A model generated the notes under the pieces. The model was not told the origin of the DNA. It saw only the letters and a program-made list of their open reading frames with translations, and ran no database searches. Below are positions 491-53,116 of a stretch of 64,000 nucleotides of DNA, in pieces (the stretch's first letter is position 1; each line of letters begins with the position of its first letter). The stretch covers positions 17,546 through 81,545 of the forward strand of contig JADGNY010000007.1 in NCBI GenBank assembly GCA_017883235.1, written 5' to 3'. Made by a program: the position numbers and the translations under genes. The DNA is from Thermoanaerobaculia bacterium (GTDB lineage Bacteria > Acidobacteriota > Thermoanaerobaculia > Gp7-AA8).

Positions 491-3400
491 GCGCCATCGC
501 CGTCCAGTCGGCGTTCGCGTTCGAGAAACCGCGGCGCCGCAACGTCGTCATCGAGGCCGGCGCCGGCACCGGCAAGACCACAGCGATCGTGGCGGAGGTG
601 CTGAAGCTGCTGCTCGGCGACGAGACGCTTTCCCCCGAGCGCATCGTCCTCGTCACATTCACCGAGAAGGCTGCCGGCGAGATCGCCGACCGCATTCACC
701 AGGCGCTCACCGAACTGGCCCTTCGCTTCGACGCCGGCGACGACGTGACCTGGCCCATCGGCTCCGCCACGCCGCTCTTCGAGGTGCCGCCGGGCAAGCG
801 CGACGACTACCGGCGCGCGTGCATCGCACAACTCGGGCGCATCGAGTCGCTTCGTTCGCAGACGATTCATTCGTTCTGCCAGAGCCTCCTGCGCCAGTTC
901 CCGATCGAGGCCGGACTCGATCCGCAATTCACCATCATCGAAGGCTTCGAGCGCTCGCTCCTCTACGGCGAGTTGTACGACGCCTGGGTCGACGACGAGA
1001 CCCGCCTCCATCCCACCGCCGAGGCGCGGAGGGATTGGGAAGTGCTGCTCGAACATGTCGGCTACCTCTTCCTGGTCCGCAACATCATCCTGCCGCTCAT
1101 CGACCGGCGCGATCTCTTCCTCGACGATTCCTACGACCTCGGCGCGCTCGATCTGGTCGAGCACGAGCTGCTCATCGCCATCGACCGGCTGCGCGTCTGC
1201 GATGCCGATTCGGTCGCCGGCATCTGCGACTACCTGCGCGCCAATCCGTCGCCGCGCCGCGGAAGCGGCATCGAGACATGGCTGGAGTATCTGAAGCCGA
1301 TCGCGAACGTGATCCGCACCAGCGACCTGCCGAAAGGGAGAAAGGCCGAGTTCAACGAAGCCGTGCGCGTCCTGCGGGCGGATAAGGACAAGGGCAACTC
1401 CGTCTACGACCGCCTCTCCTCCCACCGCGCCGCGGTTTCCCTGCTGTCGATGATGCGCCGCTTCCTGAGTTTCCTGGATGCTGAGAAGCACAAGCGCGGC
1501 GTGGTCGACTTCGACGATCTCCTGCTGCGAACTCTGAGAGTGCTCGATGATGAAACCGTCCTCGAGCGCGTGCGTGGCCAGTTCGATTTCATCTTCGTCG
1601 ACGAGTTCCAGGACACCGACCGCGTGCAGGCGCGGATCATCGATCGCCTGGCGCGCGACCGGAGCGGCGCGCTGGTCGACGGACGGACGATCGTCGTCGG
1701 CGATCCGAAGCAGTCGATCTACGGCTTCCGCCGCGCCGACCCGGAGACCTACGACGCCTTCACGCGCGCGCTGATCGCCGCCGGCGCCGAGCATCGCAAG
1801 CTCCTCGACCAGTTCCGCAGCCATCCCCCGCTGCTCGACGCCGTCAACGCCATCTTCACGGATCTCTTCGCCGATGCCGCTCGCGATCCGAATGTGTTCC
1901 GGCCGGAGTATCACCGGCTGCGCGCTGCCAAAACGAATTCATTCGCAAGCGATGCGTCGATCACCGTCATCGACGCTCCCTTCGGCGCGCGCGACGACCG
2001 GTTCACCGCCGAGGCCGAGTCGATCGCGGCATGGATCGCGGCGCGCGGCGGTGACCTGAGGCGATACGCGCTCCTCTTCCGAAGGACGACGAAGCTCGAC
2101 GACTATCTCGATGTCTTCGAACGGCGCGGCATCCCGTACATCCTCCCGCCGACGCGCCTCTTTCTCGACCGTCCGGCACCGGTCGATCTGCTCGCCGTGC
2201 TGCGCGCCATTGCCTTCTCCTTCGACCGCGGCGCCGAAGTCTCCGCCGCGAGGACGCCGTACTTCGCGCTGACCGACGCGGAGATCGTTCGCAGGGATGA
2301 CACGTACGCCGGGTATCTCCAGGTTCTCGGCTCCCTCCGCGCCGCCGCGCAACACCTCACCGTCGCACAGCTCATCGACCTCGTCATCCGTACGTGCGGC
2401 ATCGAGGCGGTCTACGCGGCAGCAGCCGATGGAATGCGGTCGTTGCGGCATCTCGAACATGTCCGGGCCATCGCCTTTGCGTACGACCAGCGCATTGGCG
2501 GGTCGGTGCGGCAATTCGTCGATGAGATCTCGCGCCGCCGCGGCGATCCGGACGAGATGGAGCCGTCGCTGATCGACGAGGCCGGCGACGCCATCCGCAT
2601 CCTCACGGTTCATGCGGCCAAGGGGCTCGAATTCGACACGGTCATCCTCCCCGACCTCGAGTTCCCGCTGAAGTCTGCCGAGGTGTTTTTGGTAGACGAG
2701 CCCCGCAGCCTGGTGTTGCGCGGCCAGGTCGAGACGCTCTCCGCGCACTACGGCCGTGCCGGTGACGTGGCGCTGAAAGAGATCGGCAGCAGGCGTGAGG
2801 AGGCGGAGACCCGGCGGCTGTTCTACGTCGCCGTCACGCGCGCAAAAACCGAGGTCGTCTTCGTGACGAACGCAAAACCGCGAAAGGAAGGGTTCGCGCG
2901 CTATGTGGAGCAGATCTTCGACCTTCCCAACGCGCCATGGCCGCTGGAGCACGGACGTGTGATCAAGACGATGACGATCGGAGGGGATGCCGTTCCGATC
3001 GCGTTCGCGCGTGTCGCCACAGAGGGCACCGGAACGCGCACGCGGCGGAGGCTGGCGGATGCCGCACTCGAAGCGGAGCTGGCGGCGTCGCCGATCGTTG
3101 AACCGTCATTGCCGGCGCCGGCCGCACTCCCGGAAACGCTCCTTCGCGGTGATGTGCTCATCCGCCGCGCCTCCTCGCAGAAACGGGGCGCCGGAATCCT
3201 CCTGCACCGCATCCTGGAGCTGTGGGACGGCAACTCCCCCATCGAGCCGCTCCTCACGTCGATCACCATCGAGCAGGCAGCCGACGCCGCGACGGCCGCG
3301 CTCGTCCGCAAGCGTCTGGCCACCGTCAGCAAATCGAAGACGTTCAACCGCATCGCCAGCGCCGAAACGCTCGGCCGCGAGTTTCCTCTCCTGACACCAG

Positions 3401-3615
3401 GCGGCGAGCGCCGCATCGACCGGTTTCTGCGCGAGAACGGGACGGATCTCATCGTCGATTACAAGAGCGGACAACCGTCGGAGACTCGGGTGGCGTTGGA
3501 CCGCAAACAGGTAGCCCAGTATTGCCAGGCCATGAGCGCGATCACGGGAAAGCCGTGCAAAGGGTTGCTCTGGTACATCGATGTGGATGTTGATGAGGCC
3601 GTCCCAGTCGATTGA
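487..3615 (+). CDS. UvrD/AddA-type ATP-dependent helicase-nuclease
   Basis: 1042 aa. Walker A GAGTGKTT, FVDEFQDTD (motif II), VGDPKQSIYGFRRAD, TVHAAKGLEF, YVAVTRAK, and a C-terminal LIVDYKSG nuclease motif. Confidence 0.88.
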   Translation: MSAIAVQSAFAFEKPRRRNVVIEAGAGTGKTTAIVAEVLKLLLGDETLSPERIVLVTFTEKAAGEIADRIHQALTELALRFDAGDDVTWPIGSATPLFEVPPGKRDDYRRACIAQLGRIESLRSQTIHSFCQSLLRQFPIEAGLDPQFTIIEGFERSLLYGELYDAWVDDETRLHPTAEARRDWEVLLEHVGYLFLVRNIILPLIDRRDLFLDDSYDLGALDLVEHELLIAIDRLRVCDADSVAGICDYLRANPSPRRGSGIETWLEYLKPIANVIRTSDLPKGRKAEFNEAVRVLRADKDKGNSVYDRLSSHRAAVSLLSMMRRFLSFLDAEKHKRGVVDFDDLLLRTLRVLDDETVLERVRGQFDFIFVDEFQDTDRVQARIIDRLARDRSGALVDGRTIVVGDPKQSIYGFRRADPETYDAFTRALIAAGAEHRKLLDQFRSHPPLLDAVNAIFTDLFADAARDPNVFRPEYHRLRAAKTNSFASDASITVIDAPFGARDDRFTAEAESIAAWIAARGGDLRRYALLFRRTTKLDDYLDVFERRGIPYILPPTRLFLDRPAPVDLLAVLRAIAFSFDRGAEVSAARTPYFALTDAEIVRRDDTYAGYLQVLGSLRAAAQHLTVAQLIDLVIRTCGIEAVYAAAADGMRSLRHLEHVRAIAFAYDQRIGGSVRQFVDEISRRRGDPDEMEPSLIDEAGDAIRILTVHAAKGLEFDTVILPDLEFPLKSAEVFLVDEPRSLVLRGQVETLSAHYGRAGDVALKEIGSRREEAETRRLFYVAVTRAKTEVVFVTNAKPRKEGFARYVEQIFDLPNAPWPLEHGRVIKTMTIGGDAVPIAFARVATEGTGTRTRRRLADAALEAELAASPIVEPSLPAPAALPETLLRGDVLIRRASSQKRGAGILLHRILELWDGNSPIEPLLTSITIEQAADAATAALVRKRLATVSKSKTFNRIASAETLGREFPLLTPGGERRIDRFLRENGTDLIVDYKSGQPSETRVALDRKQVAQYCQAMSAITGKPCKGLLWYIDVDVDEAVPVD

Positions 3616-3665
3616 CATCGCACAGACAAGAGTAACTGTGCCACATAAAAACCCGTACCTCGCTT

Positions 3666-3857
3666 TGTCATCCTGAGCCGCCGGAGCCGCGTAATCGCGA
3701 CAGCGATTGCGCGGCGCAGGACGGTCGAAGGACCCCCAAATTGTTATCCCGGTAGGGCGGTGGAATAGTCGGCATTCCGCCACCCTGTCCGGGTTTCAGG
3801 CTGGGGGTCCTTCGGCGCGCTCTGCCCCTCCGGGGCTGCCGCCGCCTCAGGATGACA
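3666..3857. repeat. MITE-like rod hairpin element, family 1, copy A
   Basis: Termini are TGTCATCCTGAGCCGCCGGAGC ... GCCGCCTCAGGATGACA. Internal CGAAGGACCCCC pairs with GGGGGTCCTTCG. Near-identical to copies at 15699, 28767 and 30453. Confidence 0.8.
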
Positions 3858-3903
3858 GGTAACGCCGTAAGCGCTCGCTGCGGTCCGGTGAGAAACACGC
3901 CCG

Positions 3904-4599
3904 GTGCTCGCCGCAACTTACAATCCCTCCATGCCGTTGTACAAAGTCGCGCTCCTCTCCTTTGTCGCCCTGGTCACGATGGTGAACCCGCTGGCGGTCG
4001 CGCCATCGTTCATCGCCTTGACCGACGGCGCCTCGCGAAAGACCCGATCGAGTGTTGCGCTCGTCGCCGGCGTTTCCTGCATCGCCGTCCTCACCGTCTT
4101 CTTTCTGGCGGGGAACTACGTGTTCAAATTCTTCGGCATCACCGTGCCTGCGTTTCAGATCATGGGGGGTGTCCTCTTTCTGACGAATGCACTGCGCAGC
4201 CTGATCGCCGACGACCGGCGCGGGTTCAATGTCGGCGGCGAGAAACGGATCGAGGACAGCGACGTGGAGAAGGCCGATATCGATCCTTCGTCGATCGCCA
4301 TCGTTCCGATCGCCGTACCGATGCTCTCCGGTCCGGGCGCGATCACGTCGGTGATGGTGCTGGTGAACCTCTATCCTGAGATCGAGCAGCGCCTGGCCGT
4401 GATCGTAGCCATCGTCGCCGTTGGCGCCATCTCATGGCTCGTGCTGCTCTCCGCGCTGCCGCTCTCGCGCATCATCGGCGACCGCGGCCGCGCCGTCTTC
4501 ACGAAGATCATGTCGCTGCTCCTCGGCGCGATCGGTATCCAGTTCATCATCAACGGCTTGAAGCCGGTGGTGATCGAGATATTGAAGGCGGTGAGGTAG
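3904..4599 (+). CDS. MarC-family (UPF0056) integral membrane protein
   Basis: 231 aa and multi-TM. Has the N-terminal VNPLAVAPSFIALT motif typical of MarC. The start could instead be the MPLYKV codon 27 nt downstream. Confidence 0.7.
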   Translation: MLAATYNPSMPLYKVALLSFVALVTMVNPLAVAPSFIALTDGASRKTRSSVALVAGVSCIAVLTVFFLAGNYVFKFFGITVPAFQIMGGVLFLTNALRSLIADDRRGFNVGGEKRIEDSDVEKADIDPSSIAIVPIAVPMLSGPGAITSVMVLVNLYPEIEQRLAVIVAIVAVGAISWLVLLSALPLSRIIGDRGRAVFTKIMSLLLGAIGIQFIINGLKPVVIEILKAVR

Positions 4600-4629: not shown

Positions 4630-5058
4630 ATGACCAGAAAGCGCATCCTCTTCCTTTGCACAGGCAACGCCGCGCGGAGCCAGATGGCCGAGGGACTGAT
4701 GAGAGCGTTTTATGGAGATGAGGTCGACGTCGTCTCGGCCGGATCGAGGCCGGCGGGATGGGTTCATCCGCTGGCGATCGGAGCGCTCGCGGAGATCGGC
4801 ATCGACATCAGCGACGCGCAATCGAAAGGAGCCGAGCAATTCCTCGACCAACGATTCGACATCGTCGTCACCGTCTGCGACTCCGCCGCGCAGGACTGCC
4901 CCCTCTGGCCCGGCGCGGCGCGGATCGAGCACTGGCCGATCGAGGATCCGACCTTTGGCGACGAAAATGGGGGGGCTCGGTTTGCGGCGACGAGGGATGA
5001 ACTCCGGCGGCGGATTGAGGATCTAGCAAAAACACTGAACATTCAACATTGCCTTTAA
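4630..5058 (+). CDS. arsC: Arsenate reductase, LMW-PTP/thioredoxin-coupled type
   Basis: ILFLCTGNAARSQMAEG P-loop plus a VTVCDSAAQDCP cysteine pair. Confidence 0.8.
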   Translation: MTRKRILFLCTGNAARSQMAEGLMRAFYGDEVDVVSAGSRPAGWVHPLAIGALAEIGIDISDAQSKGAEQFLDQRFDIVVTVCDSAAQDCPLWPGAARIEHWPIEDPTFGDENGGARFAATRDELRRRIEDLAKTLNIQHCL

Positions 5059-36324: not shown

Positions 36325-36400
36325 AGGCGCTTAGCTCAGTCGGTAGAGCATCACCTTCACACGGTGGGGGTCAGCGGTTCGAGTCCGCTAGCGCCTACCA
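36325..36400 (+). tRNA. tRNA-Val (anticodon CAC), CCA encoded
   Basis: Hand-folded cloverleaf: acceptor AGGCGCT/AGCGCCT, D arm GCTC-AGTCGGTA-GAGC, anticodon arm TCACC-TTCACAC-GGTGG, T arm AGCGG-TTCGAGT-CCGCT. 76 nt. Confidence 0.9.
36380..36394 (+). repeat. att-like direct repeat, proximal copy (inside the tRNA-Val 3' half)
   Basis: CGAGTCCGCTAGCGC, identical to 39463-39477. Confidence 0.7.
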
Positions 36401-36538
36401 ATCTAAACCGCTCACGCCGCTCAGGTTAGCCATACCGAGCGGCGTTTCCATTTTCTGATTCGGCCCTCAAAGTGTTCGCAGATGACGCGTCGGATCGGTG
36501 CTCGCGTCAGTTTGTGTCCGGTGTGTCGGGGTAGCGAT

Positions 36539-36567
36539 TTGCGGTACTTGCGTCACTCCTGTAGTAT
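36539..36567 (+). promoter_or_regulatory. Sigma-70-like promoter candidate for the lasso precursor
   Basis: TTGCGG - 17 nt - TAGTAT, about 35 nt upstream of the GGAGG Shine-Dalgarno at 36589. Confidence 0.4.
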
Positions 36568-36602
36568 GTTGGTCAAGGTATCCCATTTGGAGGTATGCGC
36601 CC

Positions 36603-36710
36603 ATGAAGAAACAGTTGCCGGTGAAACGTGTCACGAGAATCGGCCCCGCTGTTCGACTCACGAAGAATGCACGCGGATCTCAGACCGAAGGAAGTCACGG
36701 CCGCACCTAA
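36603..36710 (+). CDS. Candidate lasso-peptide precursor (35 aa)
   Basis: MKKQLPVKRVTRIGPAVRLTKNARGSQTEGSHGRT. GGAGG lies 9 nt upstream. The leader has G-x5-T-x ending LTK. Glu is 8 residues after the predicted cleavage site. The ORF lies 38 nt upstream of the cyclase gene. Confidence 0.55.
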   Translation: MKKQLPVKRVTRIGPAVRLTKNARGSQTEGSHGRT

Positions 36711-36748
36711 GCTTCTCGATCTGATCGCTTCATCCCCAGAAGGCTGCC

Positions 36749-38461
36749 ATGCGGCTGCTCGCGCAGATAACCGCAACCGATGAAACGCTTACAATCAGTG
36801 CGGCCGGTGATGGTGTGGTCGCCACACCGACGCCTACGGGCTGGATCATGGGTAGGTGCCCGGTTGATAGCGATGCGCTCGTACGTGATGCGGCATCTCA
36901 CCTTGACCGTGTGGGACCGATCATTTGTTATGACGCCGGGCCTGTGCAGCACCTTCAGTTCTTTGCTCACCCCCTGGGTCGTGGCACGTTCTTCTTCGCG
37001 CGAAATGGCACCTCGACTTTCATCGCGACCGATTTGGCTGATCTAGTTGCGCTCACACGCCGCACAAGGCTCGATGAGCGCATAGTGGCGAACTACTTCG
37101 CGTCGCGCCGTCGAACACCCTGTGACACGAGTACGTTCTTGGTCGGCATTGAACAAGTACCGCCCGCTCACGTACTGCGCATCACCACTCAATTGCAACA
37201 AATTACGTCGTACTGGTGCCCCACCGACGATCCTGAGTATGAATGCCTTACTCGGCCTGATGCTGTCAGGCGATTGCGTGATGCGATTAATGATGAACTT
37301 CAGGTTGGCACGAAGAGTCGCGCTACCGCGGTCTTGGTCAGTGGTGGGATCGATTCCGGTGTCGTTGCAAGCATGACGTGCGCGGTCAAGCCCGATGTGT
37401 CACTTGTCTGCATTCGAGGGCCCGTGGTGGCGAGCGAGGAGATTGCTTTGCAGGACGCCTTGGTAGCGCACCTAGGTCGGCCGGCAATCATGTACGAGGC
37501 AACGCCTCGCCTTTTGCTACGTGCACTGCGTGAGCGGAATCGTAATGCGCCCGCACCTTCTGGCGGTCTGTTTACGGGGCTCTATGCCGATCTGTTGGCG
37601 ATGTTAGCAACCAACGGCATTGATGTGGTGGTTGGTGGCGAGGGTGGCGATGAGCTGTTCAATCCGCATCCGGATATCGTCGCTGATCTTTTGCAGCACC
37701 ATCAATATGCCGCGGCGTTTGAGGCGGTGAGTTGGTATGCGTCGCTTCGCTCAGAACGCACCGGTTGGCGCGTGTATCGTGAGTATGGGCATGATGCGCT
37801 TCGTTCGGCGCCAGTAAGGCGAAGTGATGAGGATCGCTTGTTCCTTCGGCGGCTCCTGGGTGACTTTGCGGCGAATGTGGAAGCGACGTTTGTGTCATAT
37901 CGTCGCGACCGTGATGGCGTCCGTGGACTGGTGTCACGTCATGCCTTTGAGGCATTGCGCGATCTGTGCGAGATTCCGTTCTATGAGGCGTGGGCACCGC
38001 CTGGAGTCGCTGCCGTTCTGAATCCGCTCGGGAGTGTTGGTGTCGTTCGCGCCGCGATGTCGTTGCGCCTGGAGGATCGGGTCAAGGCTGGCGCGGGTGC
38101 TTGCTCGAAGTTACTTCTTCGTGATGCTGGGATTGGTGTTGTTCCGAGAGATGTGCGTGAGGCACCAAAGATTGGGATTGGCAATCTGTTGTGGCAGATG
38201 ACGAGTGGGCAAGCGCTGGAGCTGGTGGACGTCTTAAGCACAGCGGTTTTGCGTGACGTCGGGATCCGGTCAGACCCCGTGTTTATCGATCCGCGCAATG
38301 TCCCTGGAAGCGTGAGCTTGTATTGGTCGCTGCTTCTTGTCCTAACGTTGTGGTATCGGGAGGTTCAGGAATGGTTAACTCAGCCGCTTCCTACGATGAT
38401 GCCGATCTCTTCTATGTTGCAACCCGTGTCAGCGTTCTCGACGACCACAGTGGTGATGTGA
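36749..38461 (+). CDS. Lasso-peptide cyclase (asparagine-synthetase-like lactam synthetase, C protein)
   Basis: 570 aa. Has the LVSGGIDSGVVAS PP-loop. Lacks the N-terminal Cys nucleophile (starts MRLLAQ). Assignment uses its context with the B protein. Confidence 0.8.
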   Translation: MRLLAQITATDETLTISAAGDGVVATPTPTGWIMGRCPVDSDALVRDAASHLDRVGPIICYDAGPVQHLQFFAHPLGRGTFFFARNGTSTFIATDLADLVALTRRTRLDERIVANYFASRRRTPCDTSTFLVGIEQVPPAHVLRITTQLQQITSYWCPTDDPEYECLTRPDAVRRLRDAINDELQVGTKSRATAVLVSGGIDSGVVASMTCAVKPDVSLVCIRGPVVASEEIALQDALVAHLGRPAIMYEATPRLLLRALRERNRNAPAPSGGLFTGLYADLLAMLATNGIDVVVGGEGGDELFNPHPDIVADLLQHHQYAAAFEAVSWYASLRSERTGWRVYREYGHDALRSAPVRRSDEDRLFLRRLLGDFAANVEATFVSYRRDRDGVRGLVSRHAFEALRDLCEIPFYEAWAPPGVAAVLNPLGSVGVVRAAMSLRLEDRVKAGAGACSKLLLRDAGIGVVPRDVREAPKIGIGNLLWQMTSGQALELVDVLSTAVLRDVGIRSDPVFIDPRNVPGSVSLYWSLLLVLTLWYREVQEWLTQPLPTMMPISSMLQPVSAFSTTTVVM

Positions 38462-39054
38462 TTCTGCTCGACGAATGTCGTGGTGAGTATTGGAGGCTCG
38501 CGTCGTCGACGTATGCACTTCTAGAACTGCTGCAGCGTTCTCCTCTCTGCTTTGGTGAGATTGCCGGTCTGGAGCTCGTTTGCGATGACCTCGTGTTGCT
38601 GATCAATGCTGGTCTGGTGTCGCGGCGTCGGGCATTTGCCCGGCCACGGTTGGTTGCTGTTGCTGGTTACGCGGTGTTGCATCTTTGGTTTCAATTTCGG
38701 CTGCGCGTATTCGGTTGGCGCGTTGTTGAGGCTGAGAGGCGGCTTTCGGTACGGCGTGTGGCGTTCGCGCCTCACATCATGGTGATATCGGAGGCGCTGT
38801 TGAGTGCTGCGCGGTTTGCGATGCTTGTACCGTTTGTGCGTGCGGATTGCTTACCTCGTGCCTTGTCGTTCCATCGGCTGCTTCGGTTTCGCGGTCATGA
38901 GGCGGTTCTCCGCATAGGCGCAGTATCATCTGACTTTGAGCCACACATTTGGGTAGAGGTGGGTGATGAGCGCATTGATTCTGGTGCTGACGATCAGGCG
39001 CTGCGATGGTTTCGTCCTCTTGAGCACACCATAACAACAACTGGTGATCCTTGA
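38371..39054 (+). CDS. Lasso-peptide B protein: PqqD/RRE-like N-domain fused to a transglutaminase-like leader peptidase
   Basis: Start chosen at MVNSAASYDD (GGGAGG 7 nt upstream). The C-terminal half has ADCLPRALSFHRLL...EPHIWVEV...D, matching the Cys-His-Asp pattern of McjB-type proteases. Confidence 0.8.
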   Translation: MVNSAASYDDADLFYVATRVSVLDDHSGDVILLDECRGEYWRLASSTYALLELLQRSPLCFGEIAGLELVCDDLVLLINAGLVSRRRAFARPRLVAVAGYAVLHLWFQFRLRVFGWRVVEAERRLSVRRVAFAPHIMVISEALLSAARFAMLVPFVRADCLPRALSFHRLLRFRGHEAVLRIGAVSSDFEPHIWVEVGDERIDSGADDQALRWFRPLEHTITTTGDP

Positions 39055-39103
39055 TCGCAAGAATCCGAAATTCTAACGACCTGGGAACGCCAGCTCCAGC
39101 AAT

Positions 39104-39298
39104 CTATGCAAGAGCGCGGATGACGGCCTCCAACGCTTCGGTCCTCGCTCGCGCGTAGCGCTCAGTCGTCCTGGTGCTGGTGTGACCGAGCAGGTCGCGC
39201 AGCGTGAAGCTGTTAATGCCTTTGCTTGCGGAGGTGCTTGCGAAGGTGTAGCGTTGGTCGTGGAAGCGCGGCACTCGACACCTGCTGCAAGCGCACGG
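39104..39298 (-). pseudogene. Tyrosine recombinase (phage integrase) C-terminal remnant
   Basis: Translates to ...RVPRFHDQRYTFASTSASKGINSFTLRDLLGHTSTRTTERYARARTEALEAVIRALA*. It has no start codon and an upstream in-frame TAA. Confidence 0.7.
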
Positions 39299-39319
39299 TT
39301 ACGCTGAAGCCACGGTGTC

Positions 39320-39379
39320 AGACCTTCGTTTTTCGTAGCCTCGCAACAGATTGAGAAAGCATGCACTTACGGACGATCC
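39320..39379. repeat. 60-bp direct repeat, copy 1
   Basis: AGACCTTCGTTTTTCG..CTCGCAAC..ATTGAGAAA.CATGCACTTACGGACGA.CC. Roughly 85 percent identical to 41011-41070 by hand alignment. Confidence 0.75.
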
Positions 39380-39462
39380 CAAAGTGATACCTGAGCGACG
39401 TTCGGTTATTCGCATTTACGAAACGTCTCAGAACGAAGCCCTGGCCCCGCCACATCTTCCCA

Positions 39463-39477
39463 CGAGTCCGCTAGCGC
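39463..39477 (+). repeat. att-like direct repeat, distal copy
   Basis: CGAGTCCGCTAGCGC, identical to tRNA-Val positions 36380-36394. Confidence 0.7.
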
Positions 39478-39738
39478 GACGACGCGGTGTCGGTGTGCTG
39501 GACGCAATGCTAGGGAGGTAGGTGACACGCCCTACTATGGCGCGCATTTCCTCGTCGAGCTCTTGCAGGTACCGGCTGATCTGGGTCTGTAAGACCCTTC
39601 CATACCTGACGAGTTGTGGTAGGGCGTACTGCGCTTGTCCTGGTATGAGGCGTGGTGTGATGGGCATAGGAGTGTCTCCTTGAAGGGAGAGTGTGCCGCA
39701 GGAGCGGGAGTCTGTCGCGTATGGACCGGCTCTTGGGT

Positions 39739-40830
39739 TTAGGGCGTGCCCGGGTCTTTCTTGGCGTCCTTCTTCGGGTCGTCGGCTTTCGGCTTGTCCG
39801 CCGATGGTGGTGGCGTGGCGATTTGGTCGACGTGGTACTGGTAGGGTTTCGTGAAGCGATCATCGAGGTAGAGGGGCGTAAGGGGGCCGTCGCCCGGGAG
39901 CGGGCCGCAGGGACTGCGGTGCTGCTCGGTGATGGCGGTGAGGGTGTGTTGGACGAAACGCGTCTCAATGGCGAGCGTGATGCTCTCCGGTAGGTTGGTG
40001 GACGTCGTCTTTGTTGGTTTGAAGTCGTTGAGTTGGAAGCGGTCGAACTCTGCGGCGGCCGCGGTCGGCGTCGCAGCTGGCGTTGCTGTGCTGGTGAGCC
40101 CAAGTGCTTTGCTGAGGACGGCGCTGATGGGGAGGACGTTGAGGATTGCTTGTGCTGTTTGGTTGTCGGCGGTTGCTGTCCCATTGGTGAGGCTGCCGTC
40201 TTTGTCGAGGCTGGCGTTGGCGGTGCTGCTGCCAAGCCACGGCATACGGGTGTTGAAGTAGTACGGTTTGGTGTAGTCGGTGAAGAAGTCACTTGTGCGG
40301 GTGTTGCTGGCAAGGACGACGTTGCGCTGCTCGACGTCGGTGACGATGAGGCTCTTCGTGACGTTGATCCCTGTCCAGGCCTCGTTGATGGCCTTGAGTT
40401 TCGTCGAGTCCATTGTGGGTTGTGCGTCTGTGGGTTGTGCATCGGCTAGCGCTTTTTGGAGGTTGTCGAGTAGTTGGAGTGACTTGATCGCTGGGCACTT
40501 CGAGGGATCTTCGGGAGTAGAGCATGGGTCGGACAGCTCTGAGCGGCGGGCAATCTTTGTTTGCTTGATGGTTTTGGTCGTTGGTGCTGGAGTGCCTGCT
40601 TTGGTTGTTGGTTGTTGTTCGCGGTACGTGTCTTCGCGGGTGAGTGCGTAGAGTGGTTCGAGCCAGATAGTGTCTTGTCTGCAGACGGCGCGTTTGGGGT
40701 AGAACGGGATACCGTCGAGGTGGGTGTTGTCGGCGATAGGGTTCGTGTTGCCGGTGGTGATACGTGCGGTGCCGAGGCACGCGGTGGTGAGGAGCGTGAG
40801 GAGGAGGACTGCGGGTGTGTACGTGCGCAT
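39739..40830 (-). CDS. Hypothetical lipoprotein (Thr/Pro-rich)
   Basis: Start at MRTYTPAVLLLTLLTTAC (lipobox), with AGGAGAA upstream. G+C looks lower by eye. No recognisable family. Confidence 0.55.
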   Translation of the reverse strand: MRTYTPAVLLLTLLTTACLGTARITTGNTNPIADNTHLDGIPFYPKRAVCRQDTIWLEPLYALTREDTYREQQPTTKAGTPAPTTKTIKQTKIARRSELSDPCSTPEDPSKCPAIKSLQLLDNLQKALADAQPTDAQPTMDSTKLKAINEAWTGINVTKSLIVTDVEQRNVVLASNTRTSDFFTDYTKPYYFNTRMPWLGSSTANASLDKDGSLTNGTATADNQTAQAILNVLPISAVLSKALGLTSTATPAATPTAAAAEFDRFQLNDFKPTKTTSTNLPESITLAIETRFVQHTLTAITEQHRSPCGPLPGDGPLTPLYLDDRFTKPYQYHVDQIATPPPSADKPKADDPKKDAKKDPGTP

Positions 40831-41010
40831 TGGGTTCTCCTGCATGAGGTAATTGCGTTGCTGTAGTTCTTCAGCGAGTGCTGTCATTCTTGTTGGACGG
40901 ACGAGGTGGGGGTATTTCGCGGGGCCGATGGAATTGGTCTCTCAAGGAACGGATGAGTGAGTGTCCCCCGCGGGGCGATTGACTCGCGGCCTGGGGATCA
41001 CACTGGGGGG

Positions 41011-41070
41011 AGACCTTCGTTTTTCGGCGGCTCGCAACCAATTGAGAAAACATGCACTTACGGACGAGCC
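41011..41070. repeat. 60-bp direct repeat, copy 2
   Basis: See 39320-39379. Lies 30 bp upstream of the truncated LLM gene fragment. Confidence 0.75.
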
Positions 41071-41101
41071 AAAAAGGGCACCAGCGGCGTTGTGTGATTC
41101 G

Positions 41102-41518
41102 ATGCGTGCCTACCGCACCGGCTTCTCCACGAACGGCGTACTCGACAAACCGCACGCCATCCTCGCGCTCTCGGTCTACTGCGCCGACACGGAGCAGGCA
41201 GCGCAGCGACTGGCCTCATCCGTGCTGCTCTCGTTTGTCCAGCTCCGGACCGGACGCCCAGGCCGGATGCCGAGCCCGGACGATGCGATGGCCCACGTCT
41301 TCACGCCCGAGGAGCAGCCGCTCGTCGCGTCTTACAGGAGACTGCAGATCGTCGGCACGCCCGACCAGGTCCGCGCTCGCATCGAGGAGATCGCCACGCG
41401 GACGCGGGCTGACGAGGTGATGATCGCCACCCACGCCTACGACCCGGCGGCGCGCGTTCGATCGTACGAGCTGGTGGCACAGGCCTTCGGCCTGCCGGAG
41501 ACATCGATGACGGCTTGA
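41102..41518 (+). pseudogene. 3' fragment of an LLM-class (luciferase-like) oxidoreductase gene
   Basis: The 138 codons are collinear with the C-terminus of the intact gene at 51991-53016 (constant offset 11498 nt, 4 aa differences). The 5' two-thirds are missing. Confidence 0.85.
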
Positions 41519-41552
41519 CTGCAGCCGGCTAGATGTGACCCCAACTTGCTCG

Positions 41553-51990: not shown

Positions 51991-53016
51991 TTGGCTCTAT
52001 CCATCTCAGCACTCGACCTCGTTCCGCTCGGCCAGGGAGGCACGAGCGTCGCGGCGCTCCGCAACGCCGCCGAGCTTGCGCGGGCGGTCGATCGCCTCGG
52101 CTACACGCGGCTGTGGTACGCCGAGCACCACAACATGCCGGGGATCGCCACCACAACCCCTGAGATCCTCATCGCGTACGTCGGCTCGATGACGACGCGG
52201 ATCCGGCTCGGCGCGGGCGGCGTCATGCTTCCGAACCACTCGCCGCTCAAGGTGGCCGAGTCGTACAAGCTTCTGGAGGCGATCTATCCGGGCCGGATCG
52301 ATCTCGGCATCGGCCGCGCGCCGGGCACCGACGGCTTGACGGCGCTCGCGCTCCGCCGCTCGCGGGAGGCCCTCGTCGCGGATGACTTCCTCAATCAGCT
52401 CGGTGAACTCATCGCGTGGGGGAATGGGTCGTTTCCGGCAGATCATCCGTTCCGAGCCATCCTGGCGATGCCGGACGACAGGCCGCTGCCGCCGCTCTAC
52501 ATCCTCGGGTCAAGCGACTACGGCGCGAAGCTGGCCGCCGAGATGGGGGTCGGATTCGCCTTCGCGGGACATTTCAGTCAGGACTCGCCCGACCCTCCGA
52601 TGCATGCCTACCGCACCGGGTTCTCCACGAACGGCGTGCTCGACAAACCGCACGCCATCCTCGCGCTCTCGGTCTACTGCGCCGACACCGAGCAGGCAGC
52701 GCAGCGACTGGCCTCATCCGTGCTGCTCTCGTTTGTCCAGCTCCGGACCGGACGCCCCGGCCGGATGCCGAGCCCGGAAGATGCGATGGCCCACGTCTTC
52801 ACGCCGGAGGAGCAGCCGCTCGTCGCGGCTTACAGGAGACTGCAGATCGTCGGCACGCCCGACCAGGTCCGCGCTCGCATCGAGGAGATCGCAACGCGGA
52901 CGCGGGCTGACGAGGTGATGATCGCCACCCACGCCTACGACCCGGCGGCACGCGTTCGATCGTACGAGCTGGTGGCACAGGTCTTCGGCCTGCCGGAGAC
53001 ATCGATGACGGCTTGA
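51991..53016 (+). CDS. LLM-class flavin-dependent (luciferase-like) oxidoreductase
   Basis: ALSISALDLVPL..., YTRLWYAEHHN motifs. Favoured start is the TTG at 51991 (AAGGAG 6 nt upstream). The track ORF starts at 51940. Confidence 0.85.
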   Translation: MALSISALDLVPLGQGGTSVAALRNAAELARAVDRLGYTRLWYAEHHNMPGIATTTPEILIAYVGSMTTRIRLGAGGVMLPNHSPLKVAESYKLLEAIYPGRIDLGIGRAPGTDGLTALALRRSREALVADDFLNQLGELIAWGNGSFPADHPFRAILAMPDDRPLPPLYILGSSDYGAKLAAEMGVGFAFAGHFSQDSPDPPMHAYRTGFSTNGVLDKPHAILALSVYCADTEQAAQRLASSVLLSFVQLRTGRPGRMPSPEDAMAHVFTPEEQPLVAAYRRLQIVGTPDQVRARIEEIATRTRADEVMIATHAYDPAARVRSYELVAQVFGLPETSMTA

Positions 53017-53116
53017 CTGCATGCCGGGGAAACCTTTTCTGATATCATGATGTCATTATGGTGGCGCGCGCACCGCCTTTGCAAGAGCACACCCCCTGCC
53101 ACAGTGACATCGATCG

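Follow-up and report, generated by a model that had tools for sequence, protein, structure and literature searches.

In Islander (Hudson, Lau and Williams 2015; PMC4383910), a displaced tRNA fragment must be an end fragment, and internal fragments are rejected. Fragments whose end coincides with a damage site, located 3 bp before the discriminator, are exempted from this rule (PMC4383910). Tandem arrays of two or more islands are also known, and 125 of them are listed there (PMC4383910). The window analysed here is a stretch of 64,000 nucleotides in which an intact tRNA-Val(CAC) gene is followed by lasso-peptide genes, a remnant of a tyrosine integrase and a second copy of 15 nt of the tRNA (Table 1). 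A sequence-only reading had taken this repeat for the distal boundary of a small, dead integrative element. The locus, which is contained in sequencing run SRR10489828, is an ordinary decayed tRNA island within a strain-specific patchwork of foreign DNA.

The closest described counterparts are found in related genomes (G-numbered below), where tRNA-Val(CAC) is an integration hotspot of the genus. Displaced tRNA-Val fragments of 22–47 nt are present in G005, G010, and G009, and partial tRNA matches of 47–48 nt lie on the contig of the tRNA in G001 and G015. Some intact tRNA-Val genes in relatives carry compensatory T-stem variants brought by the element. A layout of tRNA-Val, cargo, and convergent integrase or integrase remnant recurs in G013 (2.6 kb), G002 (2.7 kb), and G009 (3.8 kb). 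The integrase of G012 directly adjoins tRNA-Val; an intact relative of the integrase next to this tRNA, for which the sequence-only reading had suggested a search, is thus present as a 473-aa open frame. In G013, genes for a radical-SAM enzyme, an unknown product, and a CutA-like protein fill the slot between tRNA-Val and a related integrase (L040, G013:C66, 567–2784), and this gene set may be another small peptide-modification cargo.

Table 1. Features of the tRNA-Val(CAC) locus, in window coordinates.
Feature	Position	Strand	Remarks
tRNA-Val(CAC)	36325–36400	+	Intact, CCA encoded; ARAGORN and Rfam RF00005 (66 bits)
Proximal 15-mer copy, CGAGTCCGCTAGCGC	36380–36394	+	tRNA positions 56–70
tRNA-downstream flank	36401–36480	+	Conserved, terminator-like hairpin; common to relatives without lasso genes and to L051
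Lasso precursor gene	36603–36710	+	35 codons; from the ORF list; equivalent 35-aa gene upstream of the L051 cyclase
Lasso cyclase	36749–38461	+	Asparagine-synthase-like; Pfam PF00733, E 4.5e-16
Lasso leader peptidase	38323–39054	+	Transglutaminase-like; Pfam PF13471, E 1.4e-14
Tyrosine integrase C-terminal remnant	39104–39274/39277	-	~56–64 residues; Pfam PF00589; read towards tRNA
Dispersed ~126-nt element, copy a	39318–39443		~13–15-bp terminal inverted repeats, CAGACCTTCGTTT ... AAACGAAGGTCTG
Truncated gene	39428–39667	-	79 codons; N-terminal part of a 140–220-aa family
Distal 15-mer copy, CGAGTCCGCTAGCGC	39463–39477	+	Orphan scrap, 19 nt right of dispersed element
382-aa gene	39739–40887	-	Function unknown; foreign; highest tetranucleotide deviation in block
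Dispersed element, copy b	41011–41101		Cut off by LLM fragment; right end of compositionally odd block
Luciferase-like monooxygenase (LLM) 3′ fragment	41100–41528	+	97% identical to 52598–53027

The lasso-peptide cluster is complete, with precursor, cyclase, and peptidase genes in one direction and in the same gene order as at two other loci, L051 and L052. No cyclase homologue was found at E ≤ 1e-20 in the 123 other genomes of the family. Among 5.8 billion proteins, the best relative of the cyclase is 59% identical and is encoded on L051, a 5.3-kb Logan contig (SRR33230234_900088). On L051, a 3′ piece of tRNA-Val with its flank is followed by lasso genes A, C, and B and by a degenerate integrase C-terminus (pseudo-tRNA-Val half and flank, 1672–1753; lasso genes, 1959–4376; integrase stub, 4948–5021). 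The tRNA piece and its terminator-like flank match window positions 36363–36442 (E 7e-9), and the degenerate integrase C-terminus matches 39150–39226. ARAGORN finds no intact tRNA on L051, which has the lasso locus downstream of a gene for tyrosyl-tRNA synthetase rather than next to a tRNA. A metagenome scan with the protein for lasso relatives having intact integrases returned nothing, and an alignment scan with the same aim gave only relatives of at most 36% identity.

The two loci, whose cyclases are only 59% identical, have att piece, lasso genes, and integrase in the same order. This order, found also in the only close relative of the cluster, ties the integrase stub to the lasso genes. 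The lasso cluster itself is horizontally acquired cargo beside tRNA-Val. The claim that it is the fixed cargo of a dead tRNA-targeting element is therefore upheld by the absence of the cyclase from the 123 genomes, by the order on L051, and by the hotspot in relatives. One candidate argument, that the conserved flank downstream of the tRNA proves an insertion of the lasso genes away from the tRNA, was rejected because elements carry a flank copy of their own: the G005 island has one at each end, and L051 has one as well. The flank match extends to 36478 in G018, to 36482 in G013, and to 36477 in the displaced fragment of G005.

As the sequence-only reading had proposed, a tyrosine recombinase C-terminus lies between the lasso peptidase gene and the distal repeat. 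The remnant aligns with model positions 127–170/172 of Pfam Phage_integrase (PF00589; E 1.1e-6; 28.9 bits against a cut-off of 27.1). HxxR, H, and the catalytic Y are retained; neither the first Arg nor any of the N-terminal part is present, and the R...HxxR...H...Y set of the catalytic domain is incomplete. The remnant was also said to have an in-frame stop upstream and no start codon. The stop is indeed there, and ATG is absent, but a GTG at 39274 is a possible start. The stop codon of the remnant is 49 nt from that of the lasso peptidase gene. By tblastn, it is 78–81% identical to stubs or partial integrases of G013 and G018, and its alignment with the full-length relative of G012 is limited to residues 400–459 of the latter. 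Homology to longer integrases starts near 39268–39277, and no further integrase pieces were found within the window.

The tRNA-Val(CAC) sequence is 100% identical in G007, G018, G013, and G002, and the tRNA is the sole match in an Rfam scan of 35–46 kb. The exact recurrence of 15 of its nucleotides was verified by a window search: CGAGTCCGCTAGCGC occurs twice in the window, both times on the + strand and therefore in direct orientation, with the distal copy 3083 nt downstream, and shuffling gave 0.04 expected matches, with two or more matches in 0 of 100 shuffles. The 15-mer covers five T-loop bases, the 3′ strand of the T stem, and the first five of the seven 3′ bases of the acceptor stem. 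Its right edge is position 70 of 76, 3 nt short of discriminator A73, and is internal to the tRNA. The identity is exactly 15 nt, as the contexts GGTT-CGAGTCCGCTAGCGC-CTACCA in the tRNA and CCCA-CGAGTCCGCTAGCGC-GACGAC at the distal site show; the adjoining bases differ on the left (TT and CA, respectively) and on the right (CTACCA and GACGAC), and no tRNA similarity was found beside the distal copy on either side. The predicted joint 36394 → 39478 reads ...AGCGCGACGAC (acceptor end AGCGCGA...), which is not a tRNA end. The repeat had been described as a classical attL/attR signature, a description that is not supported, as the 15 nt lie inside the tRNA and joining the flanks rebuilds no tRNA.

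From left to right, the DNA around the distal copy consists of the integrase break at ~39268–39277, the dispersed element, a spacer of 19 nt, the 15-mer, and a truncated gene. This anatomy makes the distal 15-mer an orphan scrap between two broken or inserted pieces. The dispersed ~126-nt element has about 10 copies in this genome (G000), on contigs including C236, C244, C99, C71, C48, C158, and C168, and copies are also present in G005, G007, and G018, each of which has one in the interval from tRNA-Val to the LLM gene. Its conserved core is CTCGCAACC.ATTGAGAAA...ACTTACGGACGAG...GTTATTCGCA. It has no Rfam match; it may represent either a MITE or a structured RNA. The candidate idea that it ends in tRNA fragments and represents an att arm was discarded, as other copies show no significant tRNA match.

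Members of the family to which the truncated gene belongs have a coiled coil at the N terminus, repeats of an AT-hook-like RGRP motif, and, at the C terminus, a conserved domain (...SRQLQGRYLALVRQ...KEKGREAA...) that the 79-codon copy lacks. Homologues with open frames of 150–250 aa occur in 58 of 101 family genomes, and all have the C-terminal domain; homologous loci are L043–L049. The 79-codon copy itself has no Pfam match, and its only close homologue in a large protein database is the window's own sequence (L063, the same organism, 100% identical). The RRRGRP motif of the family reads RRR|ASG in this gene, with the break at ~39478. The 15-mer falls in the tail of the frame, in a low-complexity region just beyond the last clearly conserved motif (RRR).

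The DNA to the right of the repeat is foreign as well. The 382-aa gene has no match in 123 family genomes; relatives with 77–82% nucleotide identity come from soil-metagenome contigs, where the context differs, and in one case an intact integrase is adjacent. A sliding G+C and k-mer profile, which had been proposed as a check, shows no step at the repeat: GC remains at 0.55–0.60 without a break over ~36.5–41.0 kb, the drop beginning right after the tRNA, and the tetranucleotide distance is at or above the 96th genome percentile over the same unbroken interval, with its peak right of the repeat. Neither GC nor the tetranucleotide profile has a step at 39477. Foreign DNA goes on past the repeat, which is therefore no clean end of the island, and the claim that it marks the distal boundary of the island is contradicted by the foreign 382-aa gene beyond it and by an anomaly that runs to 41.0 kb.

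Comparison with the two closest genomes, G007 and G018, extends this picture. The match with the window ends at 36404 in G007 and at 36478 in G018, after which unrelated genes follow; in both it resumes only at the LLM gene, near 51.84–51.97 kb, and no sequence from 39478 onwards up to that point has a match in either genome. No relative was seen to have an empty tRNA-Val site, which the sequence-only reading had proposed for comparison; G007 and G018 carry other DNA up to the LLM gene. The LLM 3′ end forms a direct repeat (430 bp, 97%) that brackets 11.5 kb encoding an M4 peptidase, a DUF7379 protein, and NHL-repeat genes. At the same locus, G018 has a different partial LLM duplicate, of the 5′ end of the gene.

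How often a tRNA match of this size arises can be estimated from a census of all exact matches of at least 15 nt between the 47 tRNAs and the non-tRNA DNA of the genome (n = 120). In this census, 108 matches are 15–18 nt long, giving a background of ~2.3 per tRNA. At this rate, a direct match in the 10 kb downstream of the tRNA concerned arises by chance with p ~0.002 per tRNA, which amounts to ~0.08 expected cases in a genome. Of the short matches, just two are close to the tRNA that they match, the present 15-mer and a tRNA-Asp match on contig C219, and the latter is a mutated fragment alignable over its full 41 nt. All nine direct-orientation fragments of 21–49 nt reach the tRNA 3′ end or come within 4 nt of it, and six of the nine are on the same contig as their source tRNA, 3–20 kb away. 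The genome also contains at least six clean island signatures, in which a tRNA is accompanied by a direct 28–49-nt 3′-end fragment 3–20 kb off; their targets are tRNA-Arg(tct), Thr(cgt), Ala(cgc), Met(cat), Glu(ctc), and Ser(tga), and they are located on contigs C1, C103, C120, C122, and C212.

From the anatomy, the foreign DNA on both sides of the repeat, and the conserved module order, all of which are observed, we infer the following course of events. The lasso genes and the integrase stub would be the tRNA-proximal stump of a decayed tyrosine-integrase island at tRNA-Val(CAC); elements of this type have the order att (tRNA 3′ part and terminator-like flank), a small cargo slot, and an integrase read towards the tRNA. 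This stump sits within a larger strain-specific patchwork, spanning 36.48–41.0 kb as judged by composition and reaching ~51.9 kb as judged by the nearest genomes. About 85% of the integrase gene, together with whatever lay behind it, would have been lost in rearrangements that left in place the dispersed 126-nt element, the truncated AT-hook-family gene, and the foreign 382-aa gene.

Within this course of events, the distal 15-mer is somewhat more probably than otherwise the damaged remainder of a displaced tRNA-Val fragment. As such, it would now be an internal joint between two foreign modules rather than a border between island and chromosome, and it would be unable to support a tRNA-restoring excision. 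This origin agrees with the direct orientation and the position 3.1 kb downstream of its own tRNA, of which ~0.08 chance cases are expected per genome, and with the break in the RRRGRP motif of the neighboring gene, which coincides with the right edge of the 15-mer. A single recombination with a secondary site could explain both the edge of the 15-mer and the break in the gene. In addition, the 22-nt fragment of G009 has its left edge in the T loop, resembling the left edge of the distal 15-mer, and the right edge of the 15-mer falls on the damage site named for Islander (PMC4383910). Against this origin, the distal copy has zero flanking tRNA similarity, while the decayed fragment on C219 remains alignable over its length, and the nine longer direct fragments of this genome all end at or near the tRNA 3′ end. 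Moreover, the anticodon loop is where the tRNA piece of L051 begins, so the lasso element probably belonged to a ~45-nt att type, not to a T-loop type, and two separate trimmings would be needed to arrive at 15 nt.

A less probable, though serious, alternative keeps the same decayed patchwork but has the 15-mer arise independently of an att site, as a chance match or as a stray piece of the ‘CCACGAGTCCACTAG’ hairpin-repeat family. Matches of this kind are common, as the 108 exact matches of 15–18 nt illustrate. There are three genome-wide copies of CGAGTCCGCTAGCGC, the third being outside any tRNA at contig C14:21054; there, from 21051, the 15-mer with three more bases is identical to the distal copy (18/18, versus 15/15 between the distal copy and the tRNA) and forms the last unit of a tandem hairpin-repeat array. 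The family comprises at least 15 loci and ~190 arm motifs genome-wide, and a short solo fragment of it is found at C125:40989. The array units are hairpins of ~21/43 bp (CACTAGGTGGCCTC-CAC-GAGTCCACTAGTG), located at C14:20700–21070 and also on C34, C90, C174, C177, C179, C187, C194, and C197; the last unit of the C14 array is just upstream of an AbrB/PIN-like gene pair. Considered as a second att site, the C14 copy was rejected because it closes a tandem array and has no tRNA in its vicinity. The bare flanks of the 15-mer also fit an origin outside the tRNA, as do local alignments of the truncated gene, which cross the 15-mer to residues 75–77 of 79, albeit through a low-complexity stretch. 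What this alternative leaves unexplained is the position and orientation of the copy, with its chance of ~0.002 per tRNA. Furthermore, the distal copy has no hairpin partner arm beside it, and this contig has no repeat array. In 18 relatives, all 15-mer copies examined, a survey covering those read or matched to earlier hits, are within tRNA-Val or tRNA-derived fragments, which likewise favours the origin from a displaced tRNA fragment.

It is unlikely, though conceivable, that the locus represents a family of small tRNA-Val-targeting elements with a cargo slot between att and a convergent integrase, and that the 15-mer is a ‘damaged’ distal site made by the integrase, with the cargo locked in. 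The slot would hold the lasso cluster here and in L051 and the radical-SAM gene set in G013, and the crossover would have joined the boundary between the T and acceptor stems to a secondary site in the neighboring gene.

Least credible is a discrete 3.1-kb element at 36380–39477 with classical attL/attR, a 15-bp core, a lost integrase, and native DNA beyond: an exact direct repeat enclosing an integrase remnant, a GC fall immediately after the tRNA, a length above the 2-kb minimum of Islander, and a correct configuration and orientation (PMC4383910) speak for it, but the right flank is not native, with a 382-aa gene that 123 relatives lack, composition shows no step at the right repeat, the joined flanks give no tRNA, no relative has an empty site, the missing ~1 kb of integrase would have extended past the repeat, and the gap between stub and repeat is occupied by the dispersed element. 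The length of only about 3.1 kb given in the sequence-only reading is thus not backed by a demonstrated discrete element, in view of the foreign right flank, the unbroken anomaly, the missing empty site, and the internal position of the repeat.

In terms of its significance, the result is mainly housekeeping, as the locus is an ordinary decayed island of a known kind. It shows the route by which a rare lasso cluster, now immobile, entered this genome, i.e., as the cargo of a tRNA-Val integrative element. The order tRNA piece, lasso genes, integrase stub, kept at two distant loci, provides a handle for more members of the family. The result also gives a caution: a short internal tRNA match is not equivalent to an island border in a genome with ~2 chance matches of 15–18 nt per tRNA.

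Compared with the islands of Islander, the locus has an intact tRNA at one end, a 3′-side tRNA-derived repeat downstream in direct orientation, and tyrosine-integrase sequence inside, together with foreign cargo of odd composition. The 15-mer stops at the site of the ‘damaged fragment’ exception, a fit that was recognised post hoc. Yet, unlike in those islands, the fragment is only 15 nt long and internal to the tRNA, and it is followed by a truncated foreign gene instead of a tRNA tail or native flank with a small deletion. The integrase is a stub of ~60 residues and not an integrase gene, and the DNA past the repeat is foreign, with neither a restored target nor an empty site. The genuine tRNA-Val(CAC) islands of G005, G010, G001, G015, and G009 share with it the target tRNA, the orientation, and nearby integrase remnants of the same family. 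In these and in the islands at other tRNAs of this genome, by contrast, the fragments are 21–49 nt long and nearly all extend to the CCA end; at tRNA-Val they often run on into the conserved downstream flank, and some of the islands have compensatory T-stem variants that mark the element-derived half. True tandem arrays exist at tRNA-Val in G010 and G005, but an array cannot be demonstrated here, because the second module has neither an integrase nor a fragment of its own. Nevertheless, the locus resembles tandem or accreted islands in that a single tRNA is followed by a stack of several unrelated foreign modules, separated by att-like scraps.
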